IMG/VR virus record: IMGVR_UViG_2526164668_000029
Span: 1 to 38,213 of that record
Length of the DNA: 38,213 nucleotides
Strand: one strand, 5' to 3'
Source of the DNA: a virus
Taxonomy: Duplodnaviria; Heunggongvirae; Uroviricota; Caudoviricetes
The notes below the pieces were generated by a model, which worked only from the letters and a program-made list of their open reading frames with translations, searched no databases and was not told the origin of the DNA. This document shows positions 1,184 through 38,213 of this stretch, piece after piece; position 1 is the first letter of the stretch; each line of letters begins with the position of its first letter. A program made the position numbers and the translations under genes.

Positions 1184-1666
1184 ATGGAAGAACTTCACTT
1201 TGTTTACATCAATGCAAATGGTCGTATCGCTGTTCACTCTATACAGAGCATCAGTTATAGCGAAAATCATATACAGGGCATTTGTAAGAACACCGATCGA
1301 ATAAAAACCTTCCGAAAAGACCGCATTCTTAAACAGTACGATTCACCAGAACAAGCCATTCAGGAATGCGCGTCATTCCTCCCCGAAAGCTACTCACATC
1401 TCACTAAGCAGTCTGGTCCGAAAAAAAATACATTCGATGTGTGTTTCACCGGATTTAAGAAAGCAGATAAAGAAAGATTGGTTGATAAGGCGAATGAACA
1501 AGGATTAACGGTAAGAACCTCTATAACCCAAAGCCTTCAGATGCTCTGTTGCGGTTACAATGCAGGCCCATCAAAAGTATCGGCAGCCAGGATGAAAGGC
1601 ACAATCATCATAGATGAGCCTGGCTTTATACATTTTCTTGAAACGGGTGAGATCCCAGATGAATAA
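1184..1666 (+). CDS. hypothetical cargo protein with a BRCT-like C-terminal domain and a possible WYL-like N-terminal domain
   Basis: 160-aa ORF, visibly AT-rich against the flanking phage genes. C-terminal stretch VCFTGF...LTV...CCGYNAGPSKVSAARMKGTIIIDEPGF resembles the BRCT domain of NAD-dependent ligases. N-terminal ...HIQGICKNTDRIKTFRKDRI resembles the end of a WYL domain (weaker). Confidence 0.65.
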   Translation: MEELHFVYINANGRIAVHSIQSISYSENHIQGICKNTDRIKTFRKDRILKQYDSPEQAIQECASFLPESYSHLTKQSGPKKNTFDVCFTGFKKADKERLVDKANEQGLTVRTSITQSLQMLCCGYNAGPSKVSAARMKGTIIIDEPGFIHFLETGEIPDE

Positions 1667-1692: not shown

Positions 1693-1911
1693 TCAAAAAT
1701 TCATATGCCCCTGACCACCTGGCAATGGATGTGGAGGAGCAGTAGCAATCAGTGCGGGTGTCACAATAAACCGGACCACTGTTTCATGAGTAACAAAAGT
1801 GCTCCCGCAGTTAATATTTTGGCACTGGCAGTAACGCTCTTTGGTGCTTTCAGTTACTTGAAAACTGCTCCTTGTGTGTGCCGCATGACCACACTTTGGA
1901 CAATTCATCAT
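1693..1911 (-). CDS. ogr: late-gene transcription activator Ogr (zinc finger)
   Basis: MMNCPKCGHAAHTRSS...ERYCQCQNINCGSTF has the C-x2-C...C-x4-C spacing and the P2 Ogr-like C-terminus PHPLPGGQ; about 72 aa from the internal Met, the ORF track start at 1956 is probably too far upstream. Confidence 0.85.
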   Translation of the reverse strand: MMNCPKCGHAAHTRSSFQVTESTKERYCQCQNINCGSTFVTHETVVRFIVTPALIATAPPHPLPGGQGHMNF

Positions 1912-1979
1912 ATCCAGATCCCTACCTTTGCTATCAGAATCATTGTAATGATACACAAAATATCAATATTGAGAACACT

Positions 1980-3080
1980 TTATTCCATTTCAAGATCATC
2001 AATCTTCACTTCGAGTTCAATACTGGTTGTAAAACCGTTATTCGGGCTGACGGTATGTGTCAGAGTCGTAATGGTCCATTCCGCATCATCTATCGGCTGT
2101 TTAAAACCACTGACCTTCACAGGCATTTCCGTGTAGAGATCTGCCCGCCCTTCTGCCAGTTGTAGCGAAAATGACGCAACGCCGCGTTGCAGGCGTTCCC
2201 ACTGCATTTTCGCCGCTCGTTCGGCGTTGCTCCGGTTGGCATAAGTGCGATTAAGTACCAGCACGTTTTCATCCGTACCCACCAGGTAATCGCCCTGCTT
2301 CGCTTCTGGCTCTTTCTTCTGCTTCTTAGTTCTGCGCTTACGCTTCACCGTGGTGCTTTCTTTCTTCGCAGGTTCGCGGGTATGCAACCAGCTGGCAATT
2401 ACGCCCGTGTAGGCTCCGCGATCTGCCAGGGTAAATCGGTGACTGTCGCCGTCCTTGCGTGTGATAGTGATCACTGGCAGAGGTTTACCAGTGGCGCTTT
2501 TGCCCTGCCCCTGCCGGATGAATAACAGATTGCCATTTTTCACCGACGCGATGGCACCGTACTGTCGCGCCAGCCGCATCAGAAAACTGCCGTCACTCTC
2601 ATTAGTCTGGTCTATATGCTCCACGGGCTTATCCGACAGGTCTTTACCCAGTGCCATCTTCAGCTTGTGCCGCGCGGCTATTTCCTTCACCACTTCCCCG
2701 ACGGTGGTCTTATGCCACGATTTTTCACGGCGGGTATTCAGCGTTTCCCGAAAATCAGCACTTCGCGCCCGGATAGTCAGGCGGTCCGGTGCGCCAGTGT
2801 GTTCAATCTCGTCCACTGTGAATGCCCCTTTCGGGAAAAGCGGCTGCCCCTTCCAGCCCAGCGCCAGCGTAATAACCGCACCACGGCGCGGCAGCACGAT
2901 TTTTCCGTCAGCGTCATCCAGCTCCAGATCAAGCTGGTCCGCTTCAAAGCCCCGGTTATCCGTCAGCGTCAAACTCATCAGGCGGTTATCCAGCACAGTG
3001 GTGATATCCCTGCCCTCAATACTGATGCTGAATGCGGGAGTTTTGTTGCCTTTGTTAAGCAGTTCAGAGCTGAAATTCAC
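1980..3080 (-). CDS. D: tail protein D
   Basis: 366-aa ORF in the gpD position and of gpD size, directly upstream of ogr and overlapping U by 4 nt. Confidence 0.88.
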   Translation of the reverse strand: MNFSSELLNKGNKTPAFSISIEGRDITTVLDNRLMSLTLTDNRGFEADQLDLELDDADGKIVLPRRGAVITLALGWKGQPLFPKGAFTVDEIEHTGAPDRLTIRARSADFRETLNTRREKSWHKTTVGEVVKEIAARHKLKMALGKDLSDKPVEHIDQTNESDGSFLMRLARQYGAIASVKNGNLLFIRQGQGKSATGKPLPVITITRKDGDSHRFTLADRGAYTGVIASWLHTREPAKKESTTVKRKRRTKKQKKEPEAKQGDYLVGTDENVLVLNRTYANRSNAERAAKMQWERLQRGVASFSLQLAEGRADLYTEMPVKVSGFKQPIDDAEWTITTLTHTVSPNNGFTTSIELEVKIDDLEME

Positions 3081-3562: not shown

Positions 3563-6500
3563 GCGTCGTATCCCCCCTGATCGCTGTAGTTACTCCTGGC
3601 TTTTGCCTTCAGCCTGCGTTCACGTTCATCAAGCTGGCGTGCCACCTCCCGCGCAATATCCTGCGCACTTTGTCCTGGCTGCGTCTGAATGATGATCTGC
3701 GTCGGTGCCTCAATCCGTTGAACGAGCGGCACAGTGGCTGCGCGACTCACAATTGCTTCTCCACCTTTCGCGGGAAGTGCCAAAGGGTGCAACGGTGGAA
3801 GCTCTGCTGGCGCGGCAGCAACGCCCATCATTCCGGCAACAACGGCAGCCAGTGCAGCTGTATTTCTCCGGCTGGTCACATTTGCCGGGCCGTTAACAAT
3901 TTCCGGCCCGTTTTCACCGACGATGCCAAACTGCCCGCGCGGGATATACCCGCCGCTGTCATACATCCCCGCAAAGCCATATCCCCATGATGGAAAACCA
4001 CCCGATGGCATCATCACTTTACCGTCTGCATTCACCGTCGCAGGTTGCTGACGCGTCACGCTTTCCGGCAGTTTTGCCTTTGCGGCCTCTTTACTGACAA
4101 TGCCGAGCTTCTCCAGCAACCAGGAAACGCCGGATTTCAGGGAGTCCAGCGGATGCATGACCATATTCAGCCCTTCCGCCAGTGCCTCCCCGAATCGCCG
4201 CCCCATTGCCGCTGCGCTCTGCAGTTCGGCAGAGGTCGACTTAACGGGCGTCAGCAGATCATTAAACCAGCCCCACAGCGCCTGCACTTTGTCGCCAATC
4301 CACTGGAACACGGGCTTAAGCGGTTCGAACGCTGCACTGATGGGACCTGCCGCCGCTTTGAATCCTTCCACCACGCCACCGAGAAATGCGGTGATGGGTT
4401 GCCAGTATTTCCAGACAACCAGCGCCACGCCCGCCAGTGCAGTAACCACAAGACCTATCGGACTGAGCAGAGCACCTAACAGACCAGATATGGCATACAG
4501 GGCAACGCGCAGCATCGCCAGTGGACCAGATGCCAGTACTCGCAGCACCGTGCCTGCGGCGGCCAGTCCACCGCGCAGTACCGCCAGAGGATTCATAAAC
4601 ATCACAGCAACAGCACGTAAACCGGATAATCCAGACAGCAAAAGTGCAACCGGCGCACCTGCTATAGTTTTCAGGACATTTCCCGTCAGTGATGCCGTGC
4701 GGCGCAAAGACGACAACGGCGCAGTAAGTAAACCTGCGGCGTTGCCCGATGAAGCAAGCCCGCGTCGCAGCAGTGCCAGTGGTGCGCCAGCCAGCCAGGA
4801 CAACGCGCTGCTGGTTCGAGTTACTGCTGCCGTAACGGAAGATAACGTTTTGATACCCAACACAGAGAATCCCAGACGGATCACTGCCAGCGGCCCCAGC
4901 ACTGCAGCCAGCGCCACCGCTAAGGTGCCGAGGCCGACGGTAACCGCAGCCACAACAGCCGATGCTTTCATCAGTGTGCCTGTCAGTTCCGGGTTAGCTT
5001 CCACCCAGCGACGCAACGCCCCCGTGACGCTTTTCACCGTGTACAGAATATCCATCAGCGGCTGGCGCAGCGTTTCGCCCAGGCTGCTGAAGGTGTTCTG
5101 CGCTCCGGTTTTGACCAGCAACCACTGCGCAGAAAGTGAATCCTTGTTAATGTCGGATTCTTTCTGCATGGAGCCGAGCGCATCATTGCCCGCTGTCAGT
5201 TTTAACTGACGCTGCAGTTCCGGCAGGTTGTTTGCCAGTTTCGCCGCGTCATCGCCAAACTCTTTACCAAACAACATAGTCATGGCAGACAGGCGCTTGT
5301 CCTGCGGCAGCGCGTTTACCTTCTCCAGCACGCGCTGGATGGTTCCCATCGCATCCTTCGTCATCTGCTTTTCAATCACTTCAGGATTGAGTTTCAGCAG
5401 ATTCATCCCTTCAAAGAAACTCTTGCTTTGCATGGTGGCAATGGACAATTCACGCACCATCGCGTTTGCTGCACTGGCTGCAACCTCTGGCGCAGCGCCC
5501 AGTGTCAGGAAGGTGGAACCCAGCGCCGCCGCTTTACGATAATCCAGACGGTCAGCCACACCGCCCAGACGTTGCATCACATCAATGATGTCTGCCCCTT
5601 TCGACATGGCGTTATCATCCAGATAGTTCAGCGCATCACCGAGCTGTTCAATATTGCGGGTGGGGATTTTGTAGAGCTGGGCGATTTTCCCCAGACTTTC
5701 TGACAGTTCATCCGCTGGCAGCTCAAAGGCTGTTGCCGCCTTTGCTGCCGTACTGGCGAAGGCCAGCAGGTCACGTTTCTGATCTTCCCAGCTGTCGTCA
5801 GGGTTTGCGACGTTCATGCGCGCACCACCTTCAACCAGTGCAGCGAAGTCCACCGCACCGTTTTCCATCGGCAACTGTTCGCTGGCAGCCTTGATGGCAT
5901 CCTGCATTTCATAAAAACGTGCAGTGCGGTTGCCATTATCGTCACGCAGACCATTGACCTGCTTTGCCACACCTTTCATGGCATCTTCCATGCTGGTATA
6001 GCTTTTTACTGCCGCCATCACTGGCGCACCCATTGCCAGCCCTGCAGCCGTGGTGGTGGCTCCGGCACCTGCAATACGATCACGCACCTCCAGCGAACGG
6101 GTATAACTGGCACGCGCTGCATTCATCCTGCGCTGAGCTTCCCCCAGTCGCTTCAGCCGCGCCTCCTGTTTCGAAAGTTCCTGGTTATAACGTGATGTTT
6201 CACGGGCTAAACGGGCAGTTGCTCCCGCATCGTCTTTCGCAGAAATTCCCGCCCGGTACAGTTCAGCACGCACAAGCGCCGTCTGCTGCTGCAGCTTTTT
6301 CTGGCGTTCTTCCAGGCGCTGAACAGCCAGCCGTTGACGGCCCAGAGCAACAACCTGACGTTGCGAAGGCGGCCCCATCGCTCCCAGTTCCTGACTGAGC
6401 AAATTTGCACGCTGGCGGGCATAGTTCAGCCTGTCGCCTAATTTCTGATTTTCTGCCTGCAGCTTTCGGAAGCTGTCCAGACTGCTCCCGGCCTGATCAA

Positions 6501-6636
6501 GCTGCTTTATTGCATCGCGGGATTTTTTGACAGCAGCAGCCAGTTCTCTTGAACTGGCCTGCGCAGATCGAAATGGGCGGGTGAGCTTGTCAACCGCATT
6601 AAGAATGACCTGCAGACGCAGGTTGTTATCACTCAT
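3559..6636 (-). CDS. T: tail tape-measure protein T
   Basis: 1025-aa Ala/Leu-rich ORF with coiled-coil N-terminus and hydrophobic central segments, in the gpT position. Confidence 0.9.
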   Translation of the reverse strand: MSDNNLRLQVILNAVDKLTRPFRSAQASSRELAAAVKKSRDAIKQLDQAGSSLDSFRKLQAENQKLGDRLNYARQRANLLSQELGAMGPPSQRQVVALGRQRLAVQRLEERQKKLQQQTALVRAELYRAGISAKDDAGATARLARETSRYNQELSKQEARLKRLGEAQRRMNAARASYTRSLEVRDRIAGAGATTTAAGLAMGAPVMAAVKSYTSMEDAMKGVAKQVNGLRDDNGNRTARFYEMQDAIKAASEQLPMENGAVDFAALVEGGARMNVANPDDSWEDQKRDLLAFASTAAKAATAFELPADELSESLGKIAQLYKIPTRNIEQLGDALNYLDDNAMSKGADIIDVMQRLGGVADRLDYRKAAALGSTFLTLGAAPEVAASAANAMVRELSIATMQSKSFFEGMNLLKLNPEVIEKQMTKDAMGTIQRVLEKVNALPQDKRLSAMTMLFGKEFGDDAAKLANNLPELQRQLKLTAGNDALGSMQKESDINKDSLSAQWLLVKTGAQNTFSSLGETLRQPLMDILYTVKSVTGALRRWVEANPELTGTLMKASAVVAAVTVGLGTLAVALAAVLGPLAVIRLGFSVLGIKTLSSVTAAVTRTSSALSWLAGAPLALLRRGLASSGNAAGLLTAPLSSLRRTASLTGNVLKTIAGAPVALLLSGLSGLRAVAVMFMNPLAVLRGGLAAAGTVLRVLASGPLAMLRVALYAISGLLGALLSPIGLVVTALAGVALVVWKYWQPITAFLGGVVEGFKAAAGPISAAFEPLKPVFQWIGDKVQALWGWFNDLLTPVKSTSAELQSAAAMGRRFGEALAEGLNMVMHPLDSLKSGVSWLLEKLGIVSKEAAKAKLPESVTRQQPATVNADGKVMMPSGGFPSWGYGFAGMYDSGGYIPRGQFGIVGENGPEIVNGPANVTSRRNTAALAAVVAGMMGVAAAPAELPPLHPLALPAKGGEAIVSRAATVPLVQRIEAPTQIIIQTQPGQSAQDIAREVARQLDERERRLKAKARSNYSDQGGYDA

Positions 6637-7065
6637 CGTTGGCCCCGCTTCTCTGAATCGCTTTATACCGCCATTCCAGCACTTCGGTCAGCGGCATAAC
6701 GTCAGTAACGGATGGCGGCCAGTGAAAGATGGTGGCGATATCTGCCACCAGATCGTCAACCGTCAGGCTGTCGGTAAACCGGCAAGCACCGACTTCTTCA
6801 ACAAAAAAGTGACAACCTCAACCGACATGGCAGTGAGATCTGCCGGGTCCATCTCTGCGATTTCCTGTGCAGTCAGTGCCGGACTGGAGATGCGGGGGAT
6901 CACGGTCATCATCGCGTTCACATCCATATCCATAATGGCCTGCAGGCGTGTGCCGCGCAGCGCACCGGACTGCGGTTTACGCAGCACAATTTCGGTAATT
7001 TCTGTTTTACCGCGCATGATGGGAGTATCCAGTTTAATAGTCTTTTCAGTCTGCTTATCGCTCAT
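6629..7065 (-). CDS. E+E' tail chaperone made by programmed -1 frameshift
   Basis: Minus-strand T_TTT_TTG heptamer at 6802-6808; hand translation of the -1 frame runs open to a TGA at 6629-6631, ending ...LTEVLEWRYKAIQRSGANDE and overlapping the T start. Confidence 0.6.
6763..7065 (-). CDS. E: tail assembly chaperone E
   Basis: 100-aa ORF between FII and T; carries a slippery heptamer near its 3' end (see E+E'). Confidence 0.85.
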   Translation of the reverse strand: MSDKQTEKTIKLDTPIMRGKTEITEIVLRKPQSGALRGTRLQAIMDMDVNAMMTVIPRISSPALTAQEIAEMDPADLTAMSVEVVTFLLKKSVLAGLPTA

Positions 7066-7119
7066 TTTGCTGTCCTGTAAATTGGGTTCTGGCGCGGCAT
7101 TCCGCGCCGTTCAGATACA

Positions 7120-7635
7120 TCAGAGGCCGAGGGCGTTGCGGTGCGCTTCCATCAGGTCCACACCGTCCACAATTTCCACCATGTTGATAAGGTCCACTTC
7201 ATAGAGCACCTCACCATTGATAGTCAGCTTCGCGTAGCTGTTGGTACTGGTCACTTTGGTGGTGTTGCTTTCGCCCGTCTTCCACTCGCCGGAATCCACT
7301 TCTTTGTGACGTCCACGCACCACAAGCTCCACGGCCTGCACTTCTCCGGTATCGTCACGCTGGATAGAGCCGGTGAAGCGCAACTGGATGCCATCCACCG
7401 TGGCTTTGCCCATCTGTTTAAACAGCAGCAGTTCAGTACCACCAATGGAAAATTCTGTGTCCAGCGCACTGTCATCAAGCCCCAGATCCACATCCACTGC
7501 ACCCGGCATTCCGCCGCCGCGATACTTCTCATATTTGCGGGTGAATTTCGGCAGCGTCAGCGACTCAACGATCCCCTGCCAGTTGTTCCCGTCATTAAAC
7601 AGGTTCAGGTGTTTTAATTTGCGTGGTAAAGCCAT
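7120..7635 (-). CDS. FII: major tail tube protein FII
   Basis: 171 aa, MALPRKLKHLNLFNDG... N-terminus, downstream of FI. Confidence 0.9.
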   Translation of the reverse strand: MALPRKLKHLNLFNDGNNWQGIVESLTLPKFTRKYEKYRGGGMPGAVDVDLGLDDSALDTEFSIGGTELLLFKQMGKATVDGIQLRFTGSIQRDDTGEVQAVELVVRGRHKEVDSGEWKTGESNTTKVTSTNSYAKLTINGEVLYEVDLINMVEIVDGVDLMEAHRNALGL

Positions 7636-7644
7636 GTTGTCCCC

Positions 7645-8817
7645 TTACGCGCTGACCTGGCTAGAGAAATTCACCAGGTACTGATCGGTGATGCGCTGAC
7701 GCAGCATCAGGTTTTCAAGTGGCGGCACTGGCGTGTAGTCGTAGTCGATGGTGAGTTTTCCGGCTTTCAGCGTGTCTTTGTCGTTCACCGACTCATCCAG
7801 CCAGCAATCACCACCAATGAGATAGCCCTGACTGACCAGGCTGCGCATTTTGGCGCGGATACCCTCGATAATGTCGCGGGCCAGCGACGGGTTAAGCGGT
7901 TTATCCACCGCCCACATGTGTGCTTCTGCCATCGTGTCCATCAGCACCTGCGCCGTGCGGGTGTAGTTTTCGAAGGCAAAGAGCGGGTCATCACTCAGGC
8001 AGCGGGAACCCCAGAAGCGGAAACCGTCTTTACGCACAAGCGTGGTGACGTCGTTCTGGTTCAGCAGACCTGCATCGGTTGCCGGGTCCTGCAGATCCCA
8101 GAACACATCAGCAGAAATTCCGGTGACACCGTTCACGCCCACGTTGGACAGGCTTTTGTGCCATCCGGTCTGCTCGTCAATTTTGGCGCGCAGACCAAGC
8201 GCACGGGCGGTGGCATATGCCGTTGCTTCGGCATTCAGCACCGTGTCCCAGCCAGTAAAGTCAGGCCAGATCAGCATCCCTTCGCGCTGGCTGAAGTTTT
8301 CACGGTAAGTGATCGCCTCCTGTACCGTCTTGCAGCCATACGCTGACAGGTAAGCAAATCCACGCAGGCTTTGCGCCACGCTCAGCAACTCAGTAGCTAC
8401 CGCCTTGGTGTCGTGGCCTGGCACGCCGAGAATGCGCGGTTTAACGCCGAGCTGTGACTGGGCAGATAACAGGGCTTTCATGCCTGTTTTTTTACCTTCA
8501 GCAGTCACTGCGCCGATGATATTGGTCGTGGTTTCTTCTTCCGTTTCACCCTGCGGCACACGCACAACAACGGTCACGGGTTTTGCCTGGTCAGCGATGG
8601 CGTCCAGCGAACGGGCCAGCGTACCGGACTCACCCGCTTTACCGCTGGCAGTCAGCACATCAGTGATCAGCACGGGTTTATTAAGAGGAAACATTTTTGC
8701 ATCGGCATCATCGCCCGTGCAGACCATACCCACGATGGCGGTGCTCACCGTGGTAATGGATCGGGTGCCTTCGTTGACTTCAACAACGCGCACTCCGTGG
8801 TGGTAATCCTGAGCCAT
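7645..8817 (-). CDS. FI: contractile tail sheath protein FI
   Basis: 390 aa, recognisable as P2 gpFI (…WPDF..WDTV…[12 protein letters not shown]…). Confidence 0.9.
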
Positions 8818-8893
8818 AGTGGCGAACCTCCTGATTGGATTAGGCTTCGCCCTATGTTGAAGTGATTGTGCCTGACAAACAGCTAAGCGCAGT

Positions 8894-8911
8894 TGTGTCG
8901 TTATTCACACA
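8894..8911. promoter_or_regulatory. candidate Ogr-dependent late promoter element upstream of FI
   Basis: TGT-N12-ACA dyad (TGTgtcgttattcacACA) about 80 bp upstream of the FI start. Confidence 0.45.
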
Positions 8912-8959
8912 AAATAACGGTATTTGTCCGCTTACAGGAAAAATCAAAATAATGCTGAC

Positions 8960-9526
8960 TCAGGGCGATTCATTGTTCTCATTCGCCGGAAATTTTCTAT
9001 AAATGGTAGAAACGCCCACATCAAAAATCAGTGCAATACGCTGTCTTGATTCTCCGGCCTCGAGTAAACGTCCAATCTGTGCCCACTGTTCGGTAGTCAA
9101 CTTAGGACGGCGTCCACCTACTCTGCCTTTAGCACGAGCTGCAGCCAGCCCTGCCCTGGTACGTTCAACTATCAGTTCGCGTTCCATTTCAGCCAGGGCA
9201 CCCATGACATGAAAAAAGAAACGGCCCATTGGGGTACTGGTATCAATACTGTCAGTCAGACTTCTGAAATTCACGCCGCGCTGGCGCAACTCTTCTATCA
9301 GAGTAACAAGATGCCGCATACTGCGCCCCAACCTGTCCAGCTTCCAGACAACCAGTGTGTCACCTGCCGATAGTGTCCTGAGCAGTTTTTTAAGCCCCGG
9401 TCTGTCGGACTTAGTACCACTGATTTTGTCCTCAAAAATCCGCTCACATCCCGCGCAGTTCAGTGCATTACGTTGCAAATCGGTGTTCTGGTCATTTGTT
9501 GACACGCGTACATAGCCAATAAGCAT
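8960..9526 (-). CDS. serine DNA invertase (Hin/Gin/Cin/Pin family)
   Basis: MLIGYVRVSTNDQNTDLQRNAL... is the Gin/Hin N-terminus with the catalytic Ser; C-terminal HTH. True start is the internal Met at 9526, preceded by an in-frame upstream extension in the ORF track. Confidence 0.9.
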   Translation of the reverse strand: MLIGYVRVSTNDQNTDLQRNALNCAGCERIFEDKISGTKSDRPGLKKLLRTLSAGDTLVVWKLDRLGRSMRHLVTLIEELRQRGVNFRSLTDSIDTSTPMGRFFFHVMGALAEMERELIVERTRAGLAAARAKGRVGGRRPKLTTEQWAQIGRLLEAGESRQRIALIFDVGVSTIYRKFPANENNESP

Positions 9527-9553
9527 GATCAATCCCCTGAATAAAAACCGGGG

Positions 9554-10102
9554 ATGATGCCAGTTAGCCATTATCTCTGCATTTTCATAAACGTTGGTTT
9601 GGGAGAAGGCTCTGCATTACCTGTTGGTGTGCCTGTTCCGTGGCCTTCAGTCACACCGCCAACAGGCTGGCTGAAATGCAACGGTGCGGCTTTTTCTGCT
9701 GAAGAATACCCGGAACTGGCAAAGGCTTACCCGACCAATAAATTGCCTGATTTACGCGGTGAATTTATTCGTGGCTGGGATGACGGTCGCGGGATTGATA
9801 CTGGTCGCGCTTTGCTTAATTGGCAGCCACACACAATTTTGGACCATGCACACTATATGGAATTATGGACAGGGGACGGACTCGCCGCAGGAAGTGCACG
9901 GGAAGGAGTAAACCCAGGAATACTGGCTACATACGGTGACGGGGGAATAGTTAAAACGGACGAACCCGGTCTTAAGGTGCCTTCCTCACTACGAGCTATT
10001 AGTACTCGTAGTGTAAAACGTTTTGGTGAAATTAGTGGAAATGTAGGTACAGAAACTCGTCCTCGTAACATCGCTTTTAATTATATCGTAAGGGCCGCAT
10101 GA
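9554..10102 (+). CDS. alternative tail-fibre C-terminal cassette, expressed only after inversion
   Basis: Downstream of the crossover motif (encoding GLGE) it reads ...LPVGVPVPWPSVTPPTGWLKCNGAAFSAEEYPELAKAYP, a typical fibre tip; the in-frame stub upstream of the crossover is not a real N-terminus. Confidence 0.65.
   Translation: MMPVSHYLCIFINVGLGEGSALPVGVPVPWPSVTPPTGWLKCNGAAFSAEEYPELAKAYPTNKLPDLRGEFIRGWDDGRGIDTGRALLNWQPHTILDHAHYMELWTGDGLAAGSAREGVNPGILATYGDGGIVKTDEPGLKVPSSLRAISTRSVKRFGEISGNVGTETRPRNIAFNYIVRAA
9583..9608. repeat. left crossover site of the invertible tail-fibre segment
   Basis: ttttcataaacgttggtttgggagaa is an inverted copy (22/26) of 11563-11588 and resembles gix/hix sites. 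Confidence 0.6.
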
Positions 10103-10704
10103 TGAATAAAGCTGTATTAAATAGCGAACTCATCACCACAAAGGCGGGAGACATTACCGTTTACAATTATGATGGTGAGACACGGGAATATATTTCCACA
10201 TCAACTGAATATCTTGCTGTGGGTGTCGGTATCCCGGCATGTTCCTGTTTAGATGCTCCTGGCTCATATAAAGCTGGTTATGCAATTTGCCGTTCTGCAG
10301 ATTTTAACTCATGGGAATATGTGCCAGACCATCGCGGTGAAATCGTCTATAGCACCGAAACAGGAGAATCAAAAGAAATCACAGCTCCGGGTGATTACCC
10401 TGAAAACACGACCACTATCGCTCCATTTACGCCATACGATAAATGGGATGGTGAGAAATGGGTGACCGATACTGAGGCACAGCATAGCGCAGCAGTCGAA
10501 GCGGCAGAAGCACAGCGTCAGTCACTGATTGATGCTGCAATGGCTTCCATTAGTCTGATTCAACTGAAATTACAGGCCGGGCGGAAACTGACGCAGGCAG
10601 AAACAACCCGGCTTAACGCTGTGCTGGATTACATTGACGCGGTGACTGCAACAGATACCAGCACCGCGCCGGATGTCATCTGGCCTGAACTGCCGGAGGC
10701 GTAG
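10099..10704 (+). CDS. tail fibre assembly protein for the alternative cassette
   Basis: 201 aa; C-terminal motif LNAVLDYIDAV...STAPDVIWPELP shared with the convergent assembly gene. Confidence 0.75.
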   Translation: MMNKAVLNSELITTKAGDITVYNYDGETREYISTSTEYLAVGVGIPACSCLDAPGSYKAGYAICRSADFNSWEYVPDHRGEIVYSTETGESKEITAPGDYPENTTTIAPFTPYDKWDGEKWVTDTEAQHSAAVEAAEAQRQSLIDAAMASISLIQLKLQAGRKLTQAETTRLNAVLDYIDAVTATDTSTAPDVIWPELPEA

Positions 10705-14473: not shown

Positions 14474-15048
14474 ACCGGGCCTCCGGTTGTGTCGCCGCCT
14501 TTCAGGACGCCAGTATGCTGATGTGCATCAACCACAATTCCGTTAGAACTCATTGCACCGCCGCCCTGGGTAACGCCACCATTGATCACCACTTCGCTGT
14601 TAATGCGCGTGCGGTCAGCCTCCAGTACAAACTCATTGGTTTTCATGGTGATGTTGTCAGCGGCCTCAATGACCATTGATTTGATGCCCCTGACATACCA
14701 GCGCCCGGTGGCGGGTTCGTATTCAAACCAGCCACCGTCAGGATGTTCTGTCACGCAGGCGTCCGCCGACGTCGACGGTGGCGCGAACTGATTCGAATAG
14801 ATGGCGGGCAGCGCAAACGCGGTTTCCAGATTGCCTCCCAGACTCAGCAGCACCACCTGCTCACCTTCCGATGGTTTCCACCATGTGCAGGCATTACCCG
14901 CGCGCAGCGTCAGCCAGTTAATCCAGTTGGTTTCAAGGTCGCCCGTTTTCACCCGACAAAGCCAGTTTTCCCGGTCCACTTCGGTGACTACACCTGTGCG
15001 GATCAGATTGGTGATAAGGCGCATGATTTCGGTTAATTGTGCGTTCAT
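14470..15048 (-). CDS. V: baseplate spike/assembly protein V
   Basis: 192 aa, first gene of the V-W-J-I-H operon. Confidence 0.85.
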   Translation of the reverse strand: MNAQLTEIMRLITNLIRTGVVTEVDRENWLCRVKTGDLETNWINWLTLRAGNACTWWKPSEGEQVVLLSLGGNLETAFALPAIYSNQFAPPSTSADACVTEHPDGGWFEYEPATGRWYVRGIKSMVIEAADNITMKTNEFVLEADRTRINSEVVINGGVTQGGGAMSSNGIVVDAHQHTGVLKGGDTTGGPV

Positions 15049-15094
15049 AGGGAAAGGTTGCCATCAGGGGAAGAAAGGCGGCAGTGCTGCAACT

Positions 15095-15112
15095 TGTATC
15101 AGTGCTGATACA
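15095..15112. promoter_or_regulatory. candidate Ogr-dependent late promoter element upstream of V
   Basis: Perfect palindrome TTGTATCAGTGCTGATACAA containing TGT-N12-ACA in the S-V intergenic region. Confidence 0.5.
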
Positions 15113-15116
15113 AAGA

Positions 15117-15563
15117 TCACCCCGCCAGCCATTGCAGAATCATGTCGCGGGTCATTGCCTCAACATCATCATTTACACCCAGCAGGCGGCGCTCTGCGTA
15201 ACGAACCTCCGGTCCTTTGCGACTGACGCGATCACGCAGGCCGTAATGGTGAACACGGGCAATACGCTGCACCTTGCCTTCAAACTGTACGCTGGCAGAG
15301 TCGGCGCTGGCGGCAGTTTTCAGGTATTTTGTGGTGCGCAGCTTTGCAAACATCTGACGTTTGATGCGCCCCTTCTTGCTGCGTGCTGTTACCCTGCGCG
15401 GTTCATAACTGCTGCCATCTGGATTGCGCTGCATCCTGATATTCTGCTGCTGTGTCCGGCGCAGTTCCTGCGCCAGCTGGCGCATCATACGGCTTCTTGC
15501 GGCTGGCTCCAGATTCGCCAGCAAGGCACTCAGCCAGTCGTCCACCTTCTGCAATTCAGCCAC
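15117..15563 (-). CDS. S: tail completion protein S
   Basis: 148 aa, in the gpS position. Confidence 0.85.
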   Translation of the reverse strand: MAELQKVDDWLSALLANLEPAARSRMMRQLAQELRRTQQQNIRMQRNPDGSSYEPRRVTARSKKGRIKRQMFAKLRTTKYLKTAASADSASVQFEGKVQRIARVHHYGLRDRVSRKGPEVRYAERRLLGVNDDVEAMTRDMILQWLAG

Positions 15564-30788: not shown

Positions 30789-31298
30789 TCACAGCAACCC
30801 GAATGAAGCACCGAGACCAGTTACGGTATCAACTGCACTTGCCATCGCAGGATTAGCCTGTAAACGGGCCTGCAATGAAACAGCAGCCAGCGCCATCAGT
30901 CGTGTAACAGAGTTAATGCTGCTGATCGCATCACGACGGCCTGCACTGGTTTTTACATCGCCAGAAACCGCACCAGCCGCGACACGCCCTATCTCTGCAG
31001 TTGCACTCATGACGTAATGCGGTAGTTTCTCTTTTGCCACCTCATTAATCGGAACACATGGCAGACAATGAATCTGTGCCAGAAAACCATCTACCAGCGT
31101 TGAATCTTCAGTCAGATCGGTAAGTAGCCAGATATCTCGTGCAGTGAGCTGATGCGGTTGTTCCGGGTTCAGCTTGTTACGCAGCGTCTGGACGTTCATT
31201 CCCGCGAGTTCTGCTAGCTTCGCCATATTGTGACGTAGTGCAAAAGCTCTACAGGCTTCATCAAAATGCGGATGTTTGGAAATCTTGTAATCAAACAT
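30789..31298 (-). CDS. cII: 186-type CII lysogeny-establishment activator
   Basis: 169 aa; MFDYKISKHPHFDEACRAFALRHNMAKLAELAGMNVQTLRNKLNPEQPHQ... matches coliphage 186 CII as I recall it. Confidence 0.75.
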   Translation of the reverse strand: MFDYKISKHPHFDEACRAFALRHNMAKLAELAGMNVQTLRNKLNPEQPHQLTARDIWLLTDLTEDSTLVDGFLAQIHCLPCVPINEVAKEKLPHYVMSATAEIGRVAAGAVSGDVKTSAGRRDAISSINSVTRLMALAAVSLQARLQANPAMASAVDTVTGLGASFGLL

Positions 31299-31675: not shown

Positions 31676-32326
31676 TTGTCAAATGGAGAGTTCATCTTGA
31701 AGATTAGTACAGGTGCAAATACGGGAGGGAGAGAGACCATCAAAAGGCTGATGACAGCCTATGGTTTCAACACTCAGATAGCGTTGGTTGAACACCTCGA
31801 AGCATCAAAAAGCACCATGGCAAACAGGATGTTACGTGATAGCTTCCCTGCTGACTGGGTTATTCAATGTGCCCTTGAAACAGGTATTTCTCTTCTTTGG
31901 CTGACAACGGGCCAAGGGGAAATGTATCCTCAAACAGAAGAAAAAAATAAGTTCAAAAACGAGAGTTCACCTATAGTTCGCCCCCTTTCAAAGATAGTTA
32001 TCCCATCAGTAAGGCAGGCAACCATTGAGAACGGAACGCTCGAAGAGATGGGGGATGTTTTCCTTGATCAGACTTTGATACCCGGAAAAGCCGAATATTG
32101 TTTGTACGTCAAAGCTAACGACGGCAATTACATTGTTGATACATCAACAAAACAGCTTAGTAACGGAATTTGGCTCATAGACATCGACGGTATGAAAAAC
32201 ATCGTCAAAATTGCGCGCATACCTGGAAACAAAATAGTAGTTAACCAAGATGACACTTCATTTGAATGTTCTGTAGATGATGTGGAAGTCGTAGGACGTG
32301 CAGTCAAAGTAATCAAGAACCTCTAA
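31676..32326 (+). CDS. cI: 186-type CI immunity repressor
   Basis: HTH N-terminus (...AYGFNTQIALVEHLE...CALETGISLLWLTTGQGE) followed by int; start codon uncertain (TTG at 31676 or ATG at 31751). Confidence 0.75.
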   Translation: MSNGEFILKISTGANTGGRETIKRLMTAYGFNTQIALVEHLEASKSTMANRMLRDSFPADWVIQCALETGISLLWLTTGQGEMYPQTEEKNKFKNESSPIVRPLSKIVIPSVRQATIENGTLEEMGDVFLDQTLIPGKAEYCLYVKANDGNYIVDTSTKQLSNGIWLIDIDGMKNIVKIARIPGNKIVVNQDDTSFECSVDDVEVVGRAVKVIKNL

Positions 32327-32329
32327 CTT

Positions 32330-33349
32330 ATGACCATCAGAAAACAGCCGAACGGAAAATGGTTGTGTGAGTGCTATCCCAATGGACGCAATGGTAAGCG
32401 CGTGCGTAAGCAATTTGCTACCAAAGGCGAAGCTATTGCATTTGAAAGCTTCACAATGGAAGAAGTGAACAAAAAACCATGGCTGGGGGAAAAGGAAGAT
32501 CGGCGACATTTATCAGAATTAATTGAGCTGTGGTATTCCCTGTATGGTCAAACACTCACAGACCCCAAGCGCCTCATGGCGAAACTTAGTATTATCTGTA
32601 ATGGTCTAGGCGATCCCATCGCTTCAGAACTGACAGCCGGTGACTTTACGAAATACCGCGAAGCACGGTTAAAAGGTGAAGTACGAAATGAAGATGGCAC
32701 GCTTATGTCGCCCGTTAAGCCCCGCACGGTAAACCTTGAACAGCGCAATCTATCATCTGTTTTTGGTACACTGAAAAAGCTGGGCCACTGGTCAGCCCCC
32801 AACCCGCTTGCCGGGCTGCCAACATTTAAAATTGCTGAGAGTGAATTGGCGTTCCTGACCCCGGAAGAAATTAAACGTCTGCTGGATGCCTGTGCTGATT
32901 CTCAAAACTCTAGTCTGCTGACGGTTGCAAAAATATGTCTGGCCACCGGCGCGAGATGGAGTGAAGCCGAAAACCTGCAGGGCCATCAATTATCAAAATA
33001 CCGGATCACCTACACCAAAACTAAAGGCAAGAAAAACCGAACCGTACCGATATCTCAGGAGCTATATGAAGAACTCCCCAAAAACAGGGGGAAACTATTC
33101 ACGCCCTGCAGAAAAGCTTTTGAGCGCGCAGTAAAACGAGCCGGTATAGACCTGCCTGAAGGCCAGTGCACACACGTGTTGCGCCATACATTCGCCAGTC
33201 ACTTCATGATGAATGGCGGAAACATATTGGTACTACGCGATATTCTTGGTCACTCTGATATAAAAATGACGATGGTTTATGCTCATTTTTCGCCAGATCA
33301 TTTAGAAGATGCTGTAACAAAAAATCCACTGGCTATGTTGGGATACTGA
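32330..33349 (+). CDS. int: tyrosine integrase (P2/186 type)
   Basis: 339 aa; catalytic region ...HVLRHTFAS...LGHSDIKMTMVYAHF with the R-H-R-Y residues. Confidence 0.9.
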   Translation: MTIRKQPNGKWLCECYPNGRNGKRVRKQFATKGEAIAFESFTMEEVNKKPWLGEKEDRRHLSELIELWYSLYGQTLTDPKRLMAKLSIICNGLGDPIASELTAGDFTKYREARLKGEVRNEDGTLMSPVKPRTVNLEQRNLSSVFGTLKKLGHWSAPNPLAGLPTFKIAESELAFLTPEEIKRLLDACADSQNSSLLTVAKICLATGARWSEAENLQGHQLSKYRITYTKTKGKKNRTVPISQELYEELPKNRGKLFTPCRKAFERAVKRAGIDLPEGQCTHVLRHTFASHFMMNGGNILVLRDILGHSDIKMTMVYAHFSPDHLEDAVTKNPLAMLGY

Positions 33350-33351
33350 TA

Positions 33352-34383
33352 ATGGAAAAAAGCATTAGCACATTTATGTACCTATCCGTTTTATTAGGTT
33401 GTATATTCTTATTTATAAAATATCGACTTTATGTTCTCGATCATAGAAGCCTGTTCCAACAACCCTTGTTCTGGGCTGCAATAGGCCTACCTTTATTCAC
33501 CAGCCTTTACTTTGGTTCTTTTGTCTGGATAGATAAAATACACTCTTTTAGTCTTACAAGTCACGGTTATGAGAGATTTTTAGATATCTCGAAATTACCA
33601 TTACTCATCCTTGCATCTGCAGTACCTTTAGTTTCAATAGTAAACAACCTACACAGAACCAAACAAACAGAAAAACAGATCTCAGAGGCAGAAAGGAAAA
33701 ACAGGGTAGATTTATATTACAACCACATGAAATTTCATCTTGATTTATATAAAAAAATCGAAGGAAAAAGAATAGGCAGCTACTACCCGGTTCAGGAAGC
33801 TCAAGCTGAAGCAATCTACCAACATTTTATAAAACATCCACAAGAACTATATAGAAAAGCATACCCACAATCTACGCCTGATGATTCTCAACAATTAGAT
33901 ATTAATGAGCAATTTGTTATTGATTTACACAAATGTTGGGTAGAAATCAACGCAAGACTCAAGCAATTATCCGAGAGTGAAAATCAAATACATCCTACAG
34001 AGGAACTTTGCACAACAAAGATGAGAATATTTGTAGGAGTTATGATTATTTATGAAAAAACTTGTAAACTGTTGTGTTTAGGTGGATTTCATTATAAAAA
34101 GTCATTTGTAATAAATGATAGTTATAATAAATACCAAGTTTATTCACCATTTTATGATTTTGGCACTCTGTACGAATCACTGCAATCCTTAGAAGAGATA
34201 ACCTACGCCTTCTTGGATACTTGCAGAAATGAAGTGGTAAACTTGTACTTCCCTATAGAAGATAAAATTTTGATATATGGTGAAGGGATTCTAGAGAATT
34301 GGTTCAAGTATTCTCAGTTCTTGATCACTATAGCTTATCAACCCGCCAAGATGTCTCGCTTACCCCAGCTGAGACGCGATTGA
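33352..34383 (+). CDS. hypothetical 3-TM membrane cargo protein between int and the attachment repeat
   Basis: 343 aa, very AT-rich; three N-terminal hydrophobic helices then a soluble domain; ATG 2 nt after the int stop. Confidence 0.7.
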   Translation: MEKSISTFMYLSVLLGCIFLFIKYRLYVLDHRSLFQQPLFWAAIGLPLFTSLYFGSFVWIDKIHSFSLTSHGYERFLDISKLPLLILASAVPLVSIVNNLHRTKQTEKQISEAERKNRVDLYYNHMKFHLDLYKKIEGKRIGSYYPVQEAQAEAIYQHFIKHPQELYRKAYPQSTPDDSQQLDINEQFVIDLHKCWVEINARLKQLSESENQIHPTEELCTTKMRIFVGVMIIYEKTCKLLCLGGFHYKKSFVINDSYNKYQVYSPFYDFGTLYESLQSLEEITYAFLDTCRNEVVNLYFPIEDKILIYGEGILENWFKYSQFLITIAYQPAKMSRLPQLRRD

Positions 34384-34498
34384 TGATGGCGACATTTTGG
34401 CGGCAGAGCTTTAAAAACAGATAAAACTGTCAAACACCACATAACACTAAAGTATTGTTTTTAAACATAAATCATTATTTTTTCTGTAGTAAAAATGG

Positions 34499-34544
34499 TA
34501 TGTAGGAATTTCGGACGCGGGTTCAACTCCCGCCAGCTCCACCA
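34499..34544. repeat. prophage attachment-site direct repeat (distal copy)
   Basis: Exact 46-bp copy of 1015-1060. Confidence 0.85.
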
Positions 34545-34709
34545 CTTTTTAGTTGTTTGAAGTTCAATGAAGTCTACTAAGCCCACACAGCACAAGCTCT
34601 GCGGGCTTTTTTACGTCTATTGTCGTCCAGTGAGAATTGCTGAGAACTACGAGTTATGGCACCCTGAATGGGACCCACTAAGAAGGGTCCAAAAACCGAG
34701 GGTCCCAAA

Positions 34710-35939
34710 ATGGCAAAAATCGCTAAGAAGCTCACTGACACTGAAATCAAAAGCACCAAGCCAGCCGATAAAGAAATCAACTTGTTTGACGGTGATGGTC
34801 TGATTCTACGAATCGCTCCTTTGGCGAAAGGAGGCAAGAAAAATTGGTATTTCAGGTATGCAGTACCAGTGAGCAAGAAAAGAACCAAAATGAGCCTTGG
34901 GACATATCCTCACCTTACCCTTGCAAGAGCCAGAGCCTTACGTGATGAATATCTCTCCTTTCTGGCAAATGGTGTTGATCCCCAAATCCATAACAACGAT
35001 AAGGCGAAGGCATTAAAGAGTGCTACTGAGCACACTCTCTAAGCCGTAGCGCGGAAATGGTTAGATGAGAAGGTAAAGACATCAGGTATCTCACAAGACC
35101 ATGCAGCAGACATCTGGCGCAGCTTAGAGAGAAATGTCTTTCCCGGTCTGGGTAATGTCCCTATCAATGAGATCCGACCTAAGCTCTTAAAACAACACCT
35201 TGATCCTATTGAGCAACGAGGCGTATTGGAAACTCTACGCCGTATCATTTCACGTCTGAATGAAATCTTCCGGTGGGCAGCTACTGAAGAACTTATTGAG
35301 TTCAACCCGGCTGACAACCTTGGTCAAAGATTCAGTAAACCAAAAAAGCAAAATATGCCTGCCCTTCCCCCAAGCGAATTGCCAAGGTTTATGGAATCTT
35401 TGACGAATGCGTCAATCCGGTTGGAAACACGTATGCTAATTGAATGGCAATTGTTGACATGGGTTCGTCCGGGTGAAGCCGTTCGCGCAAGGTGGTCTGA
35501 TATTGATACAACCAACAGCATTTGGAACATTCCTGCTGATTTCATGAAAATGAAAAAGCTTCACAAAGTTCCTTTGAGTAAAGAAGCTTTGCGCATCCTT
35601 GAATTAATGAAATCAATAAGTGGGCATAGAGAATGGGTTTTCCCCAGCATAAAAGCGCCTCTTAATCATATGCATGAACAAACAGCCAACGCAGCTATCA
35701 TCCGAATGGGGTTCGGAGGCGAGCTTGTAGCTCACGGTATGCGTTCTATTGCACGAACAGCGGCAGAGGAGTCTGGTAAATTCAGAGCTGAAGTTCTTGA
35801 GGCAGCGCTTGCCCACTCGAAAAAAGATGAAATTATCGCAGCATACAATCGTGCAGAATATCTGATAGAGCGACAGAGTTTGATGCAATGGTGGAGTGAT
35901 TACGTTCAAGCTCAAAGATCAAATGCTCTGGTAGCCTAA
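34710..35939 (+). pseudogene. P4/CP4-57-type tyrosine integrase interrupted by an in-frame TAA
   Basis: N-terminal part (to 35042) and catalytic part (35226-35939, HGMRS...AYNRAEY) are in the same frame, separated only by TAA at 35040-35042; the read-through translation is continuous and IntA-like. Confidence 0.8.
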
Positions 35940-36464: not shown

Positions 36465-38213
36465 TTATGGTAGCATCATTGATACATAATCCACACCAAT
36501 CCTTGAGCTATACTGAGACGCTATAGCCTGATATCTTTCTGCATAACCAGTTCTCAGTTGAGATTTAAGTTTGAGTCGGACAGGAACATTTTGCACGTTG
36601 CCATCCATATTACTTAAAAACACGGCAGAAATAATATTTTTTTCTTCGCCATCAACTGTTGTTCCATGATTCAACACCACCATATAATCAACAACAGGAA
36701 GCGTTTTATCCCCTTCGAAAATAGAGAGATATTTTCTTTGATTTTTATGCATTACATATATATATTTCGAATGTTCAGCAAATGGCAATGCTTTACTCTG
36801 ACTGGCGTTAAAAAGCTCCAGAACTTTAATGAGCCTGTGCGGACTTAATCTTACATGGTGAGGGTCGTTACCCTGAGTAGGAACCAAATCACATGCCGCA
36901 GATACACATAAATACCATTTGTTCGACTCTGTATCAAAGAAAATAGTGCCAGTAGAAATATGACCATCTTCAAAATTCTTTGAAGACAAATTCATATTTA
37001 AAGCATGATACATTTCGTGATAAGTATCATTATTTGATGGCAGATCCATTTTTGAAGAGCAATATTGGAGCAATGCAGCAACTCCGCTGTTAGCGTATTC
37101 ATTTGAATAGCTATCAAAAACACTTTTGATAAATTCATCCAGCGTATTATTATTTTTAAGTCTTTGATAAAGCTCTTCTGATAAATTACCAAATACAAAG
37201 TCAATATTTCTACATCTAATATCAGGCGAGTCTGATTTTAATATCTCATTTAACCACGCAGCTTGACCGTAATGATCGTTAGCCAAATGATTTACAAAAG
37301 ATAAAGCCTCAGCTTCGATTGCATTCTGAATTTCAGATTTTATTAACTGATAATAAGATGGTTTCCATTCAATGAGAGAATCATTGAGAGTTTGCCAAAT
37401 CCTATCTCCATCGTTTTCATGATCATCTTGAACCTTATGAAATAGGGAGACAAAGATATTACCACATTGAATCCATTTTACTCCGCTTTCATCACCCCGA
37501 ATGACATTGCCAGATGTGTTGCTAGAAATAATTGCATTTCTAGACACAGCATATTCTGCAATCATTTTTGCAATGAAGTTTTTATCCTTTTGATCCTCCA
37601 ACACAGCATCATCATGTATTAATCTTTTAATTCTTCTACAAGGCTTACTGTCTTTAATATAGGCTATTGTTTCATCTCTTGTGAGAGCTTTATTACCATT
37701 ATCATTTAAGTTCGGTAATACAACGTCTTCCCAATAACTTTGGACATCTTCATTATCGTAGTCAATGATCAAGCTGTTGATATCCAGAGCACCTTTGAGA
37801 GTCGATGATATCTGCATCCAAACCGTTTCTAAATTCTCTCTAGTATATATTACAATCATATTTAAATGATCGGAGTCTTTCAAATCTTGTAATAGTTTAA
37901 GTGTTTTATCAGGTGCATTATTATCAAGATGATAATCTACAATAATAAGATCTGATTTTCTAATCCGATCCACATCGAAATTAACAGAACCATTGTCAAC
38001 ATCACAAATCATATTTTTAGATTGAAAAAAGCTCTCAAGAGTAGCGGCTCGTTTAGATGAGTCAATTTTGTTGTAGTCTAAATCAACTTCGTTATTCAAC
38101 GCCCTGATTGATTCAGAATACGTCAGAAAATCGTCATCAATCATGACAACGGAACGAATTGCATTTTCGCAGAAAGTTTTCTGGACAAGAGAATTATAAT
38201 TTGCCACTGTCAT
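36465..38213 (-). CDS. hypothetical 582-aa protein with receiver-like (REC-like) N-terminal domain
   Basis: AT-rich ORF; N-terminus VVMIDDDF...DLIIVDYHL...NMIVIYT matches the acidic-pocket, phospho-Asp and Thr positions of a CheY-like receiver fold; remainder unassigned. Start codon sits at the window edge. Confidence 0.7.
   Translation of the reverse strand: MTVANYNSLVQKTFCENAIRSVVMIDDDFLTYSESIRALNNEVDLDYNKIDSSKRAATLESFFQSKNMICDVDNGSVNFDVDRIRKSDLIIVDYHLDNNAPDKTLKLLQDLKDSDHLNMIVIYTRENLETVWMQISSTLKGALDINSLIIDYDNEDVQSYWEDVVLPNLNDNGNKALTRDETIAYIKDSKPCRRIKRLIHDDAVLEDQKDKNFIAKMIAEYAVSRNAIISSNTSGNVIRGDESGVKWIQCGNIFVSLFHKVQDDHENDGDRIWQTLNDSLIEWKPSYYQLIKSEIQNAIEAEALSFVNHLANDHYGQAAWLNEILKSDSPDIRCRNIDFVFGNLSEELYQRLKNNNTLDEFIKSVFDSYSNEYANSGVAALLQYCSSKMDLPSNNDTYHEMYHALNMNLSSKNFEDGHISTGTIFFDTESNKWYLCVSAACDLVPTQGNDPHHVRLSPHRLIKVLELFNASQSKALPFAEHSKYIYVMHKNQRKYLSIFEGDKTLPVVDYMVVLNHGTTVDGEEKNIISAVFLSNMDGNVQNVPVRLKLKSQLRTGYAERYQAIASQYSSRIGVDYVSMMLP

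Follow-up and report, generated by a model that had tools for sequence, protein, structure and literature searches.

A widespread family of membrane proteins in the int-att slot of P2/186-like prophages is a candidate lysogen protection factor

Introduction

P2-like phages carry accessory exclusion genes such as old, tin and fun(Z), and their P2/P4 hotspots are fixed slots between core genes in which AT-rich cargo varies and validated defence genes are found (PMC9122126; PMC9519451; PMC13586616). The Q-A and Z/fun loci account for most of the known P2 cargo. A 2026 survey classed the position between the integrase gene (int) and the attachment site (att) as a minor defence hotspot of P2, in which 3% of P2 systems are located (PMC13586616). 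In this study, we analysed a gene at this position in a stretch of 38,213 nt (IMG/VR record IMGVR_UViG_2526164668_000029, Caudoviricetes, positions 1-38,213; hereafter the window). Its 343-aa product is a predicted membrane protein. The gene resembles the P2 cargo in its AT-rich composition and in its fixed slot of varying content, but it matches none of the named P2 genes nor any PADLOC system. Hotspot cargo in P2-like prophages and the int-att slot were known already; what is new is a large, uncharacterised and structurally unmatched family. We give about an even chance to the reading that the gene is a protection factor, of the exclusion or defence kind, expressed in the lysogen.

Results

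The open reading frame behind int is a functional gene

The window contains a P2/186-like (Peduoviridae) prophage integrated in ssrA, and the closest deposited phages are Peduoviridae of Klebsiella, Escherichia, Yersinia and Salmonella. The prophage is bounded by an exact 45-bp direct repeat at 1016-1060 and 34500-34544, of which none would be expected by chance. The features around the open reading frame (ORF) are as follows.

32330-33349, + strand: tyrosine integrase, 186-like (Pfam Int_N and Phage_integrase); its stop is the left edge of the slot
33340-33343, + strand: Shine-Dalgarno-like tetramer GGGA, read from the sequence, 8 nt 5' of the ATG and within the 3' end of int; putative function
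33352-34383, + strand: gene of the membrane protein under study, 343 aa, phrog_17460; RefSeq WP_001676483.1 'hypothetical protein'
34386-34499, + strand: conserved attP arm, found by BLAST; its start is the right edge of the slot
34500-34544, + strand: attR core, the displaced 3' end of ssrA; exact 45-bp repeat of 1016-1060

The TGA stop of int (33347-33349) is followed by 'ta' and then by the ATG of the ORF at 33352, the first start codon past an in-frame stop, so that the two genes are 2 nt apart. The ORF stop lies 116 bp before the 45-bp att repeat. The ORF has a GC content of 0.342, and 0.314 at third codon positions (GC3), compared with 0.469 in int and 0.519 in the prophage (1061-33349). 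Only one other stretch within the prophage is equally AT-rich, the PD-T7-1 gene at 23915-25324. The first-pass annotation of this DNA had described an AT-rich 343-aa ORF that starts 2 nt past the int stop, lies before an attachment repeat and encodes three N-terminal transmembrane (TM) helices followed by a soluble domain. The coordinates, composition and repeat given above agree with that description, as do the hydropathy profile and the AlphaFold2 model presented below.

The ORF is a genuine functional gene and not a chance reading frame, because its product matches phrog_17460 over the full length (E 5.1e-203, residues 1-343 on profile positions 1-343 of 343), it has same-frame homologues with identities from 98% to ~25%, and its ratio of nonsynonymous to synonymous substitution (dN/dS) against the closest relative is 0.06 in the conserved core and 0.10 in the C-terminal domain. 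These ratios indicate that both parts of the protein are under purifying selection. The ORF was found at 99.7-100% nucleotide identity in 20 of 5426 complete E. coli genomes, and the carriers were isolated from poultry, cattle and humans. Integrase genes of the same family (>=80% nucleotide identity) were present in 213 of the 5426.

The int-att position is a swappable cargo slot

We compared twelve sampled E. coli loci with related int genes, using BLAST with the 161 bp 3' of the ORF. An attP segment made of arm and core, with 74-88% identity, was located directly behind every cargo. The conserved arm measures ~115 bp, and the cargo invariably lies between the int stop and this arm. In two loci, L028 and L029, the slot is empty and the arm begins 3 nt past the int stop. 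Elsewhere the gap from the int stop to the att core is ~0.8-2.5 kb, with at least six different contents. The contents of individual loci are listed below.

L024: anti-phage dCTP deaminase (PADLOC E 2.5e-145)
L025: GapS1 (NCBIfam NF047931, 401.6 bits against a cutoff of 320)
L023 and L026: unknown proteins of 401 and 407 aa, related to each other
L003: an unrelated membrane protein of 222 aa
L002 and L022: a distant homologue of the 343-aa protein, 309-aa type (WP_000344474.1)
L027: a distant homologue of the 343-aa protein, 336-aa type (WP_216264563.1)
L004: a pseudogenised copy beside an IS5-family element

These results demonstrate that the int-att position is a slot for swappable cargo. 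Since the arm stands behind every cargo and only 3 nt past the int stop in the empty loci, the cassette in the window is essentially the ORF alone. An int-associated housekeeping function, the alternative named by the first-pass annotation, is ruled out because the slot is empty or otherwise filled in close relatives.

Many slot ORFs (those of L002 and L003 and many homologues) end in G-[DG]-x-L-A-A-E-x-stop, including the one for the unrelated 222-aa protein, and it is the first part of the conserved attP arm that encodes this tail. The corresponding DNA of the window (GGCGACATTTTGGCGGCAGAGC, encoding GDILAAE) is at 34388-34411, past the stop and in another frame. The shared tail places the right recombination edge of the cassette inside the ORF ends. 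In L007/L008 (Enterobacter hormaechei), a 396-aa gene (6191-7381) lies after the family member and before att; its product has no match in Pfam, PADLOC or NCBIfam, and it could be a partner or an independent cargo.

The protein belongs to a large mobile family

A word-indexed search yielded 48 relatives, and those with names were all from Enterobacteriaceae. An exhaustive profile search recovered 939 cluster representatives (50% identity) at E <=1e-3, and 480 at E <=1e-10. Among the PHROGs, all 89 diverse relatives that we aligned matched phrog_17460 alone. A search for literature on the protein accessions or the PHROG number found none. The family phrog_17460 is large, without characterised function, and has not previously been named.

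The genomic position of the family was examined in 71 loci from species genomes and IMG/VR. In 64 of them the gene stands directly behind a 186-like int, a proportion biased toward int-adjacent relatives because the census patterns were drawn from the close subfamily. Two more loci have it ~1.2 kb after int, one is in the Q-A hotspot, and the rest, including one from Pseudomonas chlororaphis, were not assigned. Distant members occur in several other settings. Some occupy the main defence hotspot of P2-like phages, between portal/ogr and gpA. In a lambdoid prophage, a member lies past the tail-tip gene in the neighbourhood of PRTase-CE and DUF4747 genes, and a small HK97-type element carries one at its end, beside dnaB. 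Another setting is the accessory region of a ParA/KorB/KfrB conjugative element, with antirestriction and Fic-VbhA genes. The filamentous vibriophage VALG_phi6 carries a member that consists of the membrane module only. Two loci hold two copies: L065 has tandem paralogues after int (6834-9071), and L031 has one copy in the portal-gpA hotspot (7001-8182) and a second from the int stop onward (14987-15182). The hosts of the family comprise Enterobacteriaceae, Vibrio, Pseudomonas and a probable betaproteobacterial conjugative element. A profile search with the conserved core, aimed at fusions to known domains, returned just short fragments without Pfam domains.

The close tie to int raises the question of a phage life-cycle function linked to cI and int, such as establishment of lysogeny, prophage maintenance by addiction, or control of integration and excision. 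This reading would account for the synteny with int in the sampled loci and for a spacing resembling translational coupling, since the start codon overlaps or abuts the int stop in all homologues inspected. However, closely related prophages that share int and att have no gene at all there (L028, L029) or carry unrelated genes instead, family members are also found far from any integrase, and a pseudogenised copy flanked by an insertion sequence (IS) sits in an otherwise similar prophage. We regard a life-cycle function as the least probable of the explanations weighed here, and as highly improbable.

The distribution also bears on lysogenic conversion unrelated to phages, in which the protein would alter host physiology (envelope stress, colonisation or tolerance to toxins) and benefit the lysogen. 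Non-defence cargo is likewise present in prophage hotspots (PMC9122126), and the protein contains no recognisable defence domain. The poultry, cattle and human sources of the E. coli carriers give no host-niche signal in either direction. On the other hand, the family spans very different mobile elements and hosts, its paralogues are stacked and it shares a slot with proven defence genes, a pattern typical of conflict genes rather than of niche factors. Conversion of this type is therefore considered improbable, though less so than a life-cycle function.

A conserved membrane core is joined to a fast-evolving domain

Hydropathy analysis (Kyte-Doolittle, 19-residue windows) revealed hydrophobic segments at residues ~4-28, 39-60 and 76-101, and an inner-membrane location is predicted from these three helices. 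AlphaFold2, with 46 homologues, placed helices at 2-23, 38-61, 81-88 and 90-135, followed by a folded alpha/beta domain; the third membrane segment thereby runs on into a long helix. The mean predicted local distance difference test score (pLDDT) was 87.7 for the full length, and for residues 126-343 alone it was 91.8 with a predicted template modelling score (pTM) of 0.90. Three parts can be distinguished.

33364-33420, + strand: TM helix 1, ~residues 5-23, from hydropathy, AlphaFold helix 2-23 and the alignment
33436-33735, + strand: conserved family core, residues 29-128, from invariant and near-invariant alignment columns
33736-34380, + strand: fast-evolving C-terminal alpha/beta domain, residues 129-343, predicted to be cytoplasmic

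TM helix 1 is weakly conserved (pairwise identity 0.19-0.28) and is missing or duplicated in some homologues. In the core, TM2 (38-61) and TM3 (81-99) are joined by a short, probably periplasmic loop (62-80) that includes an amphipathic helix, and TM3 is followed by a polar juxtamembrane helix with the motif N-x-H101-R-T-x-Q-T-E-K-Q-I...K116-N-x-x-D120....H125-x-K127. The mean pairwise identity of the core was 0.64 among 46 sequences and 0.48 among 89, compared with 0.28 and 0.15 for the C-terminal domain, which diverges 3-4 times faster. The invariant residues are L34, Q37, F40, F76, P83, H101 and Q105; those near-invariant are P47, G55, W59, G72, R102, T103, Q109, I110, K116, N117, D120, H125 and K127. 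Within 129-343, Y167 is the sole near-invariant residue. As judged from the alignments, the membrane core is conserved far beyond the needs of a mere anchor. Conservation across residues 98-135 peaks at 100 degrees per residue, and this helical periodicity shows that the conservation is concentrated on one polar face of the juxtamembrane helix. The C-terminal domain is probably cytoplasmic, because positive charges lie beside the hairpin at residues 23-32 and 102-118.

We considered whether these features fit classical superinfection exclusion, in which an inner-membrane protein blocks entry of a phage genome, for example by occluding or modifying a channel, and the cell survives. The predicted membrane location agrees with such a role, as do the single gene without a partner and the position in the lysogeny module beside int, which is also that of lactococcal Sie2009 and Ltp of S. 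thermophilus. In addition, the strong conservation of the hairpin and its loop (G72, F76, I79-S80-K81, P83) could reflect contact with a host membrane protein that is itself conserved. However, the large variable domain is predicted to be in the cytoplasm, away from the incoming phage, and at 343 aa, with a folded domain of 215 aa, the protein far exceeds the known exclusion proteins of this type in size. Moreover, none of the 89 family members matched a superinfection-exclusion PHROG. Classical exclusion thus appears unlikely, and it is the main rival of the membrane-effector mechanism that we propose below.

Searches for a known function

Pfam, NCBIfam and PADLOC (PADLOC-DB v2.0.0, none at E up to 1) gave no match to the target protein. 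In the 89 relatives, Pfam and PADLOC detected no consistent family, only single scattered weak matches, and NCBIfam had no match to the one homologue searched. Sequence and profile searches of the PDB with three alignments produced only coiled-coil or bundle noise. The first-pass annotation had suggested a fold search of the soluble domain. This yielded a confident model, and neither of the two confident AlphaFold models had a fold match. P2 old, tin and fun likewise showed no sequence or model match to the target.

A membrane-anchored enzyme effector, such as a HEPN-like RNase whose divergent cytoplasmic four-helix bundle would degrade RNA once activated, in the manner of membrane-associated HEPN effectors, was examined in the same searches. 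Pfam HEPN did not hit the target, and at relaxed thresholds the best homologue scored 25.1 bits against a cutoff of 28.4. A HEPN identity is not supported. The R-x4-6-H motif of HEPN was also sought: the C-terminal domain has no conserved R or H, and R118 of the R-x6-H125 candidate is variable. We judge an enzyme effector of this kind to be very unlikely.

Pfam SLATT gave no hit in the target or the 89 relatives. PADLOC matches to the '2TM effector' were limited to single homologues (E 4.4e-5 to 5e-3, the best being 4.4e-5 and 8e-5), with none for the target. The cassette, being one gene only, includes no signal-generating partner gene for a 2TM/SLATT-type system. A Gtr-like O-antigen-modifying or Wzz-like conversion protein was rejected, as there was no glycosyltransferase or acyltransferase match and the topology differs.

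The gene is most likely the third gene of the lysogenic operon

Two further features are relevant to expression.

31676-32326, + strand: cI repressor, first gene of the lysogenic operon (Pfam Phage_CI_repr E 1.5e-28, Phage_CI_C E 2.1e-30)
34594-34608, + strand: terminator-like hairpin with a T run, 3' of attR (consensus scan)

RefSeq calls cI 'phage repressor protein CI' in an identical locus, with an internal start and 630 bp. The cI, int and ORF genes are co-directional, with gaps of 3 nt and 2 nt. Consensus scanning found no + strand promoter-like site between cI and the ORF and no convincing terminator from cI through the ORF, with one weak site inside the ORF. The site at 34594-34608 is the first convincing + strand terminator-like site downstream of the ORF and would serve the cI-int-ORF transcript. 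Because of this layout, with its short gaps and lack of a convincing terminator, lysogens most likely express the ORF within the cI-int operon, where it comes third.

In some loci, extra genes are inserted between cI and int (L009:3070-3999, L031:12695-13951 and L033:13269-14466). These are 309-aa and 418-aa genes without domain matches, or a second cI-like gene, and they suggest a further variable position within the lysogeny operon.

Other features of the prophage and its flanks

The remaining features of the window are listed here.

1-483: smpB, at the window start
698-1060: intact transfer-messenger RNA (tmRNA) gene, ssrA (ARAGORN)
1016-1060, + strand: attL core, the 3' end of ssrA; exact 45-bp repeat
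~2-20 kb: tail genes
21067-22833: terminase
22830-23867: portal
23915-25324, - strand: AT-rich PD-T7-1 match (PADLOC E 1.3e-196)
26908-28647, - strand: replication gene
30789-31298, - strand: cII

PD-T7-1, a validated defence protein, is the other AT-rich cargo of the prophage (GC 0.35) and occupies the portal-gpA hotspot, so the same prophage has cargo in two hotspots, this one and the int-att slot. A DinI-like gene (25646-25951, - strand; Pfam E 1.3e-22) adjoins it there. At the opposite end, between attL and the tail block, a stretch of GC 0.43 contains the ORFs 1184-1666 (+ strand, 160 aa) and 1705-2136 (+ strand, 143 aa), neither with a Pfam match. They may represent another cargo position; 1705-2136 overlaps the ORF 1980-3080 (- strand) and may not be genuine. 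Inside the - strand tail block is a serine invertase (8960-9571, - strand; Pfam Resolvase and HTH_7), adjoined by + strand ORFs with tail-collar and tail-fibre-assembly domains. The region 8960-10704 resembles an invertible tail-fibre segment for host-range switching.

Directly after the attL core, at 1061-1100, is a phage-side GC-rich hairpin with a T run (AAGGGGTTACGTGAAAGCGTAGCCCCTTTTTC). It presumably substitutes for the displaced ssrA terminator, now at 34594-34608. A second tmRNA gene at attR was considered, as Rfam tmRNA scored 52 bits (gathering 47) on 34368-34544; just the last 45 nt are ssrA, and the match is a fragment. The RefSeq 'ssrA' feature in identical loci, which overlaps the last codons of the ORF, reflects this Rfam match.

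A second island follows attR and contains a P4-type integrase as well as an AT-rich response-receiver-domain gene. The integrase (34668-35939) has a C-to-T nonsense change (CAA to TAA) at 35040 relative to strain WP3-S18-ESBL-09, which leaves two fragments, one Arm-DNA-binding (34668-35042) and one catalytic (35226-35939). The other gene (36465-38213, - strand; GC ~0.33) encodes 582 aa, in which an N-terminal Pfam Response_reg_2 is the only recognisable domain.

Discussion

The first-pass annotation had proposed that the gene is a superinfection-exclusion or abortive-infection factor. The genomic context agrees with this proposal, through the swappable slot, the dCTP deaminase and GapS1 in the same position, and relatives in the main P2 hotspot. 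The homology and fold searches did not bear it out. A protection factor is nevertheless our favoured reading because the slot is shared with defence genes, the family is mobile, its paralogues are stacked, its GC is low, the cassette is a single gene, and a conserved core is combined with a variable domain. Among these points, we count that the ORF has the same GC of 0.34 as the PD-T7-1 defence gene in this prophage and that the family moves between hotspots and kinds of element.

According to the proposed mechanism, a single-gene cassette, or 'moron', would have been acquired horizontally into the slot between the int stop and the attP arm. It would be transcribed in the lysogen together with cI and int, and its role would be to protect the lysogen, and hence the prophage, from other phages or mobile elements. 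The protein may be anchored in the inner membrane by its conserved hairpin of two helices, to which a variable helix is usually added on the N-terminal side. The fast-evolving cytoplasmic C-terminal domain would act as the specificity or sensor module, and the invariant polar face of the juxtamembrane helix would couple it to the hairpin. Upon recognition of an invader, the hairpin might oligomerise or otherwise compromise the membrane, giving an outcome of the abortive-infection type. We infer that this membrane-effector mechanism is the leading version of the protection reading. Two features favour a sensor-effector over a block of injection, namely the predicted cytoplasmic position of the variable domain and the conservation of the membrane part. 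The earlier picture is corrected to this extent, as a cytoplasmic variable domain, as predicted, would fit a sensor-effector better than an injection blocker facing the periplasm.

Several points weigh against the protection reading and its mechanism. Guilt by location is weak evidence, and P2 hotspots also hold non-defence cargo, for example partition systems and toxins (PMC9122126). The subfamily is tightly tied to int in the sampled loci (64 of 71, with biased patterns), which could reflect a function linked to lysogeny. The homology and fold searches identified no superinfection-exclusion or abortive-infection factor. The predicted topology relies solely on the positive-inside rule, and gene-wide positive selection was not detected (dN/dS <=0.10, with synonymous sites saturated).

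A bolder proposal, which we offer tentatively and hold to be less probable than the protection reading itself, is that phrog_17460 represents a new and widespread class of single-protein immune sensor-effectors. Its cytoplasmic domain would sense invader components, and a novel two-helix module with the invariant H-R-T-x-Q-T...K-N-x-x-D....H-x-K face would damage the membrane by a mechanism unrelated to those of 2TM, SLATT and RexB. The 186-like phages would keep the gene as the default third gene of the cI-int operon, diversified by cassette swapping and stacking of paralogues.

If the protection reading is true, an occupant that ranks among the commonest in the 186-like int-att slot would be a previously unnamed single-gene defence family, whose ~940 clusters extend over prophages, satellite-like and conjugative elements and a filamentous phage. 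The known repertoire of phage-borne immunity would gain a new type of effector, whose membrane module and fold have no characterised counterpart, and the family would help to explain how the P2/186-like lysogeny operon feeds competition between phages. If there is no phenotype, the gene stays an ordinary hypothetical moron. The gene is small and self-contained and can therefore be tested easily.

Comparison with known systems

Sie2009, Ltp, P22 SieA, T4 Imm and HK97 gp15 resemble the target as prophage-encoded single-gene membrane proteins located beside int and the repressor and presumably expressed in the lysogen. They differ from it in their small size and in their action at the periplasmic face or a channel; the target has 343 aa with a large, probably cytoplasmic domain, and no homology to them.

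Lambda RexB, the 2TM and SLATT effectors of the cyclic-oligonucleotide-based antiphage signalling system (CBASS), and Csx28, which is associated with Cas13b, share with the target a short TM hairpin joined to a cytoplasmic domain. The membrane part of the target is conserved, as expected of an effector. In contrast to these systems, the target has no partner sensor, cyclase or CRISPR gene, and weak '2TM' matches occur in homologues only.

The HEPN/TM system of phage-inducible chromosomal islands (PICI) is encoded by two genes, unlike the single gene here. Compared by its description in PMC12948488 and PMC13586616, it is similar in being int-att cargo of an integrated element and in having a membrane part and a possible HEPN-like element.

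Finally, GapS1 and the anti-phage dCTP deaminase are soluble proteins unrelated to the target, but in sister E. coli prophages their genes stand in precisely the same int-att slot.

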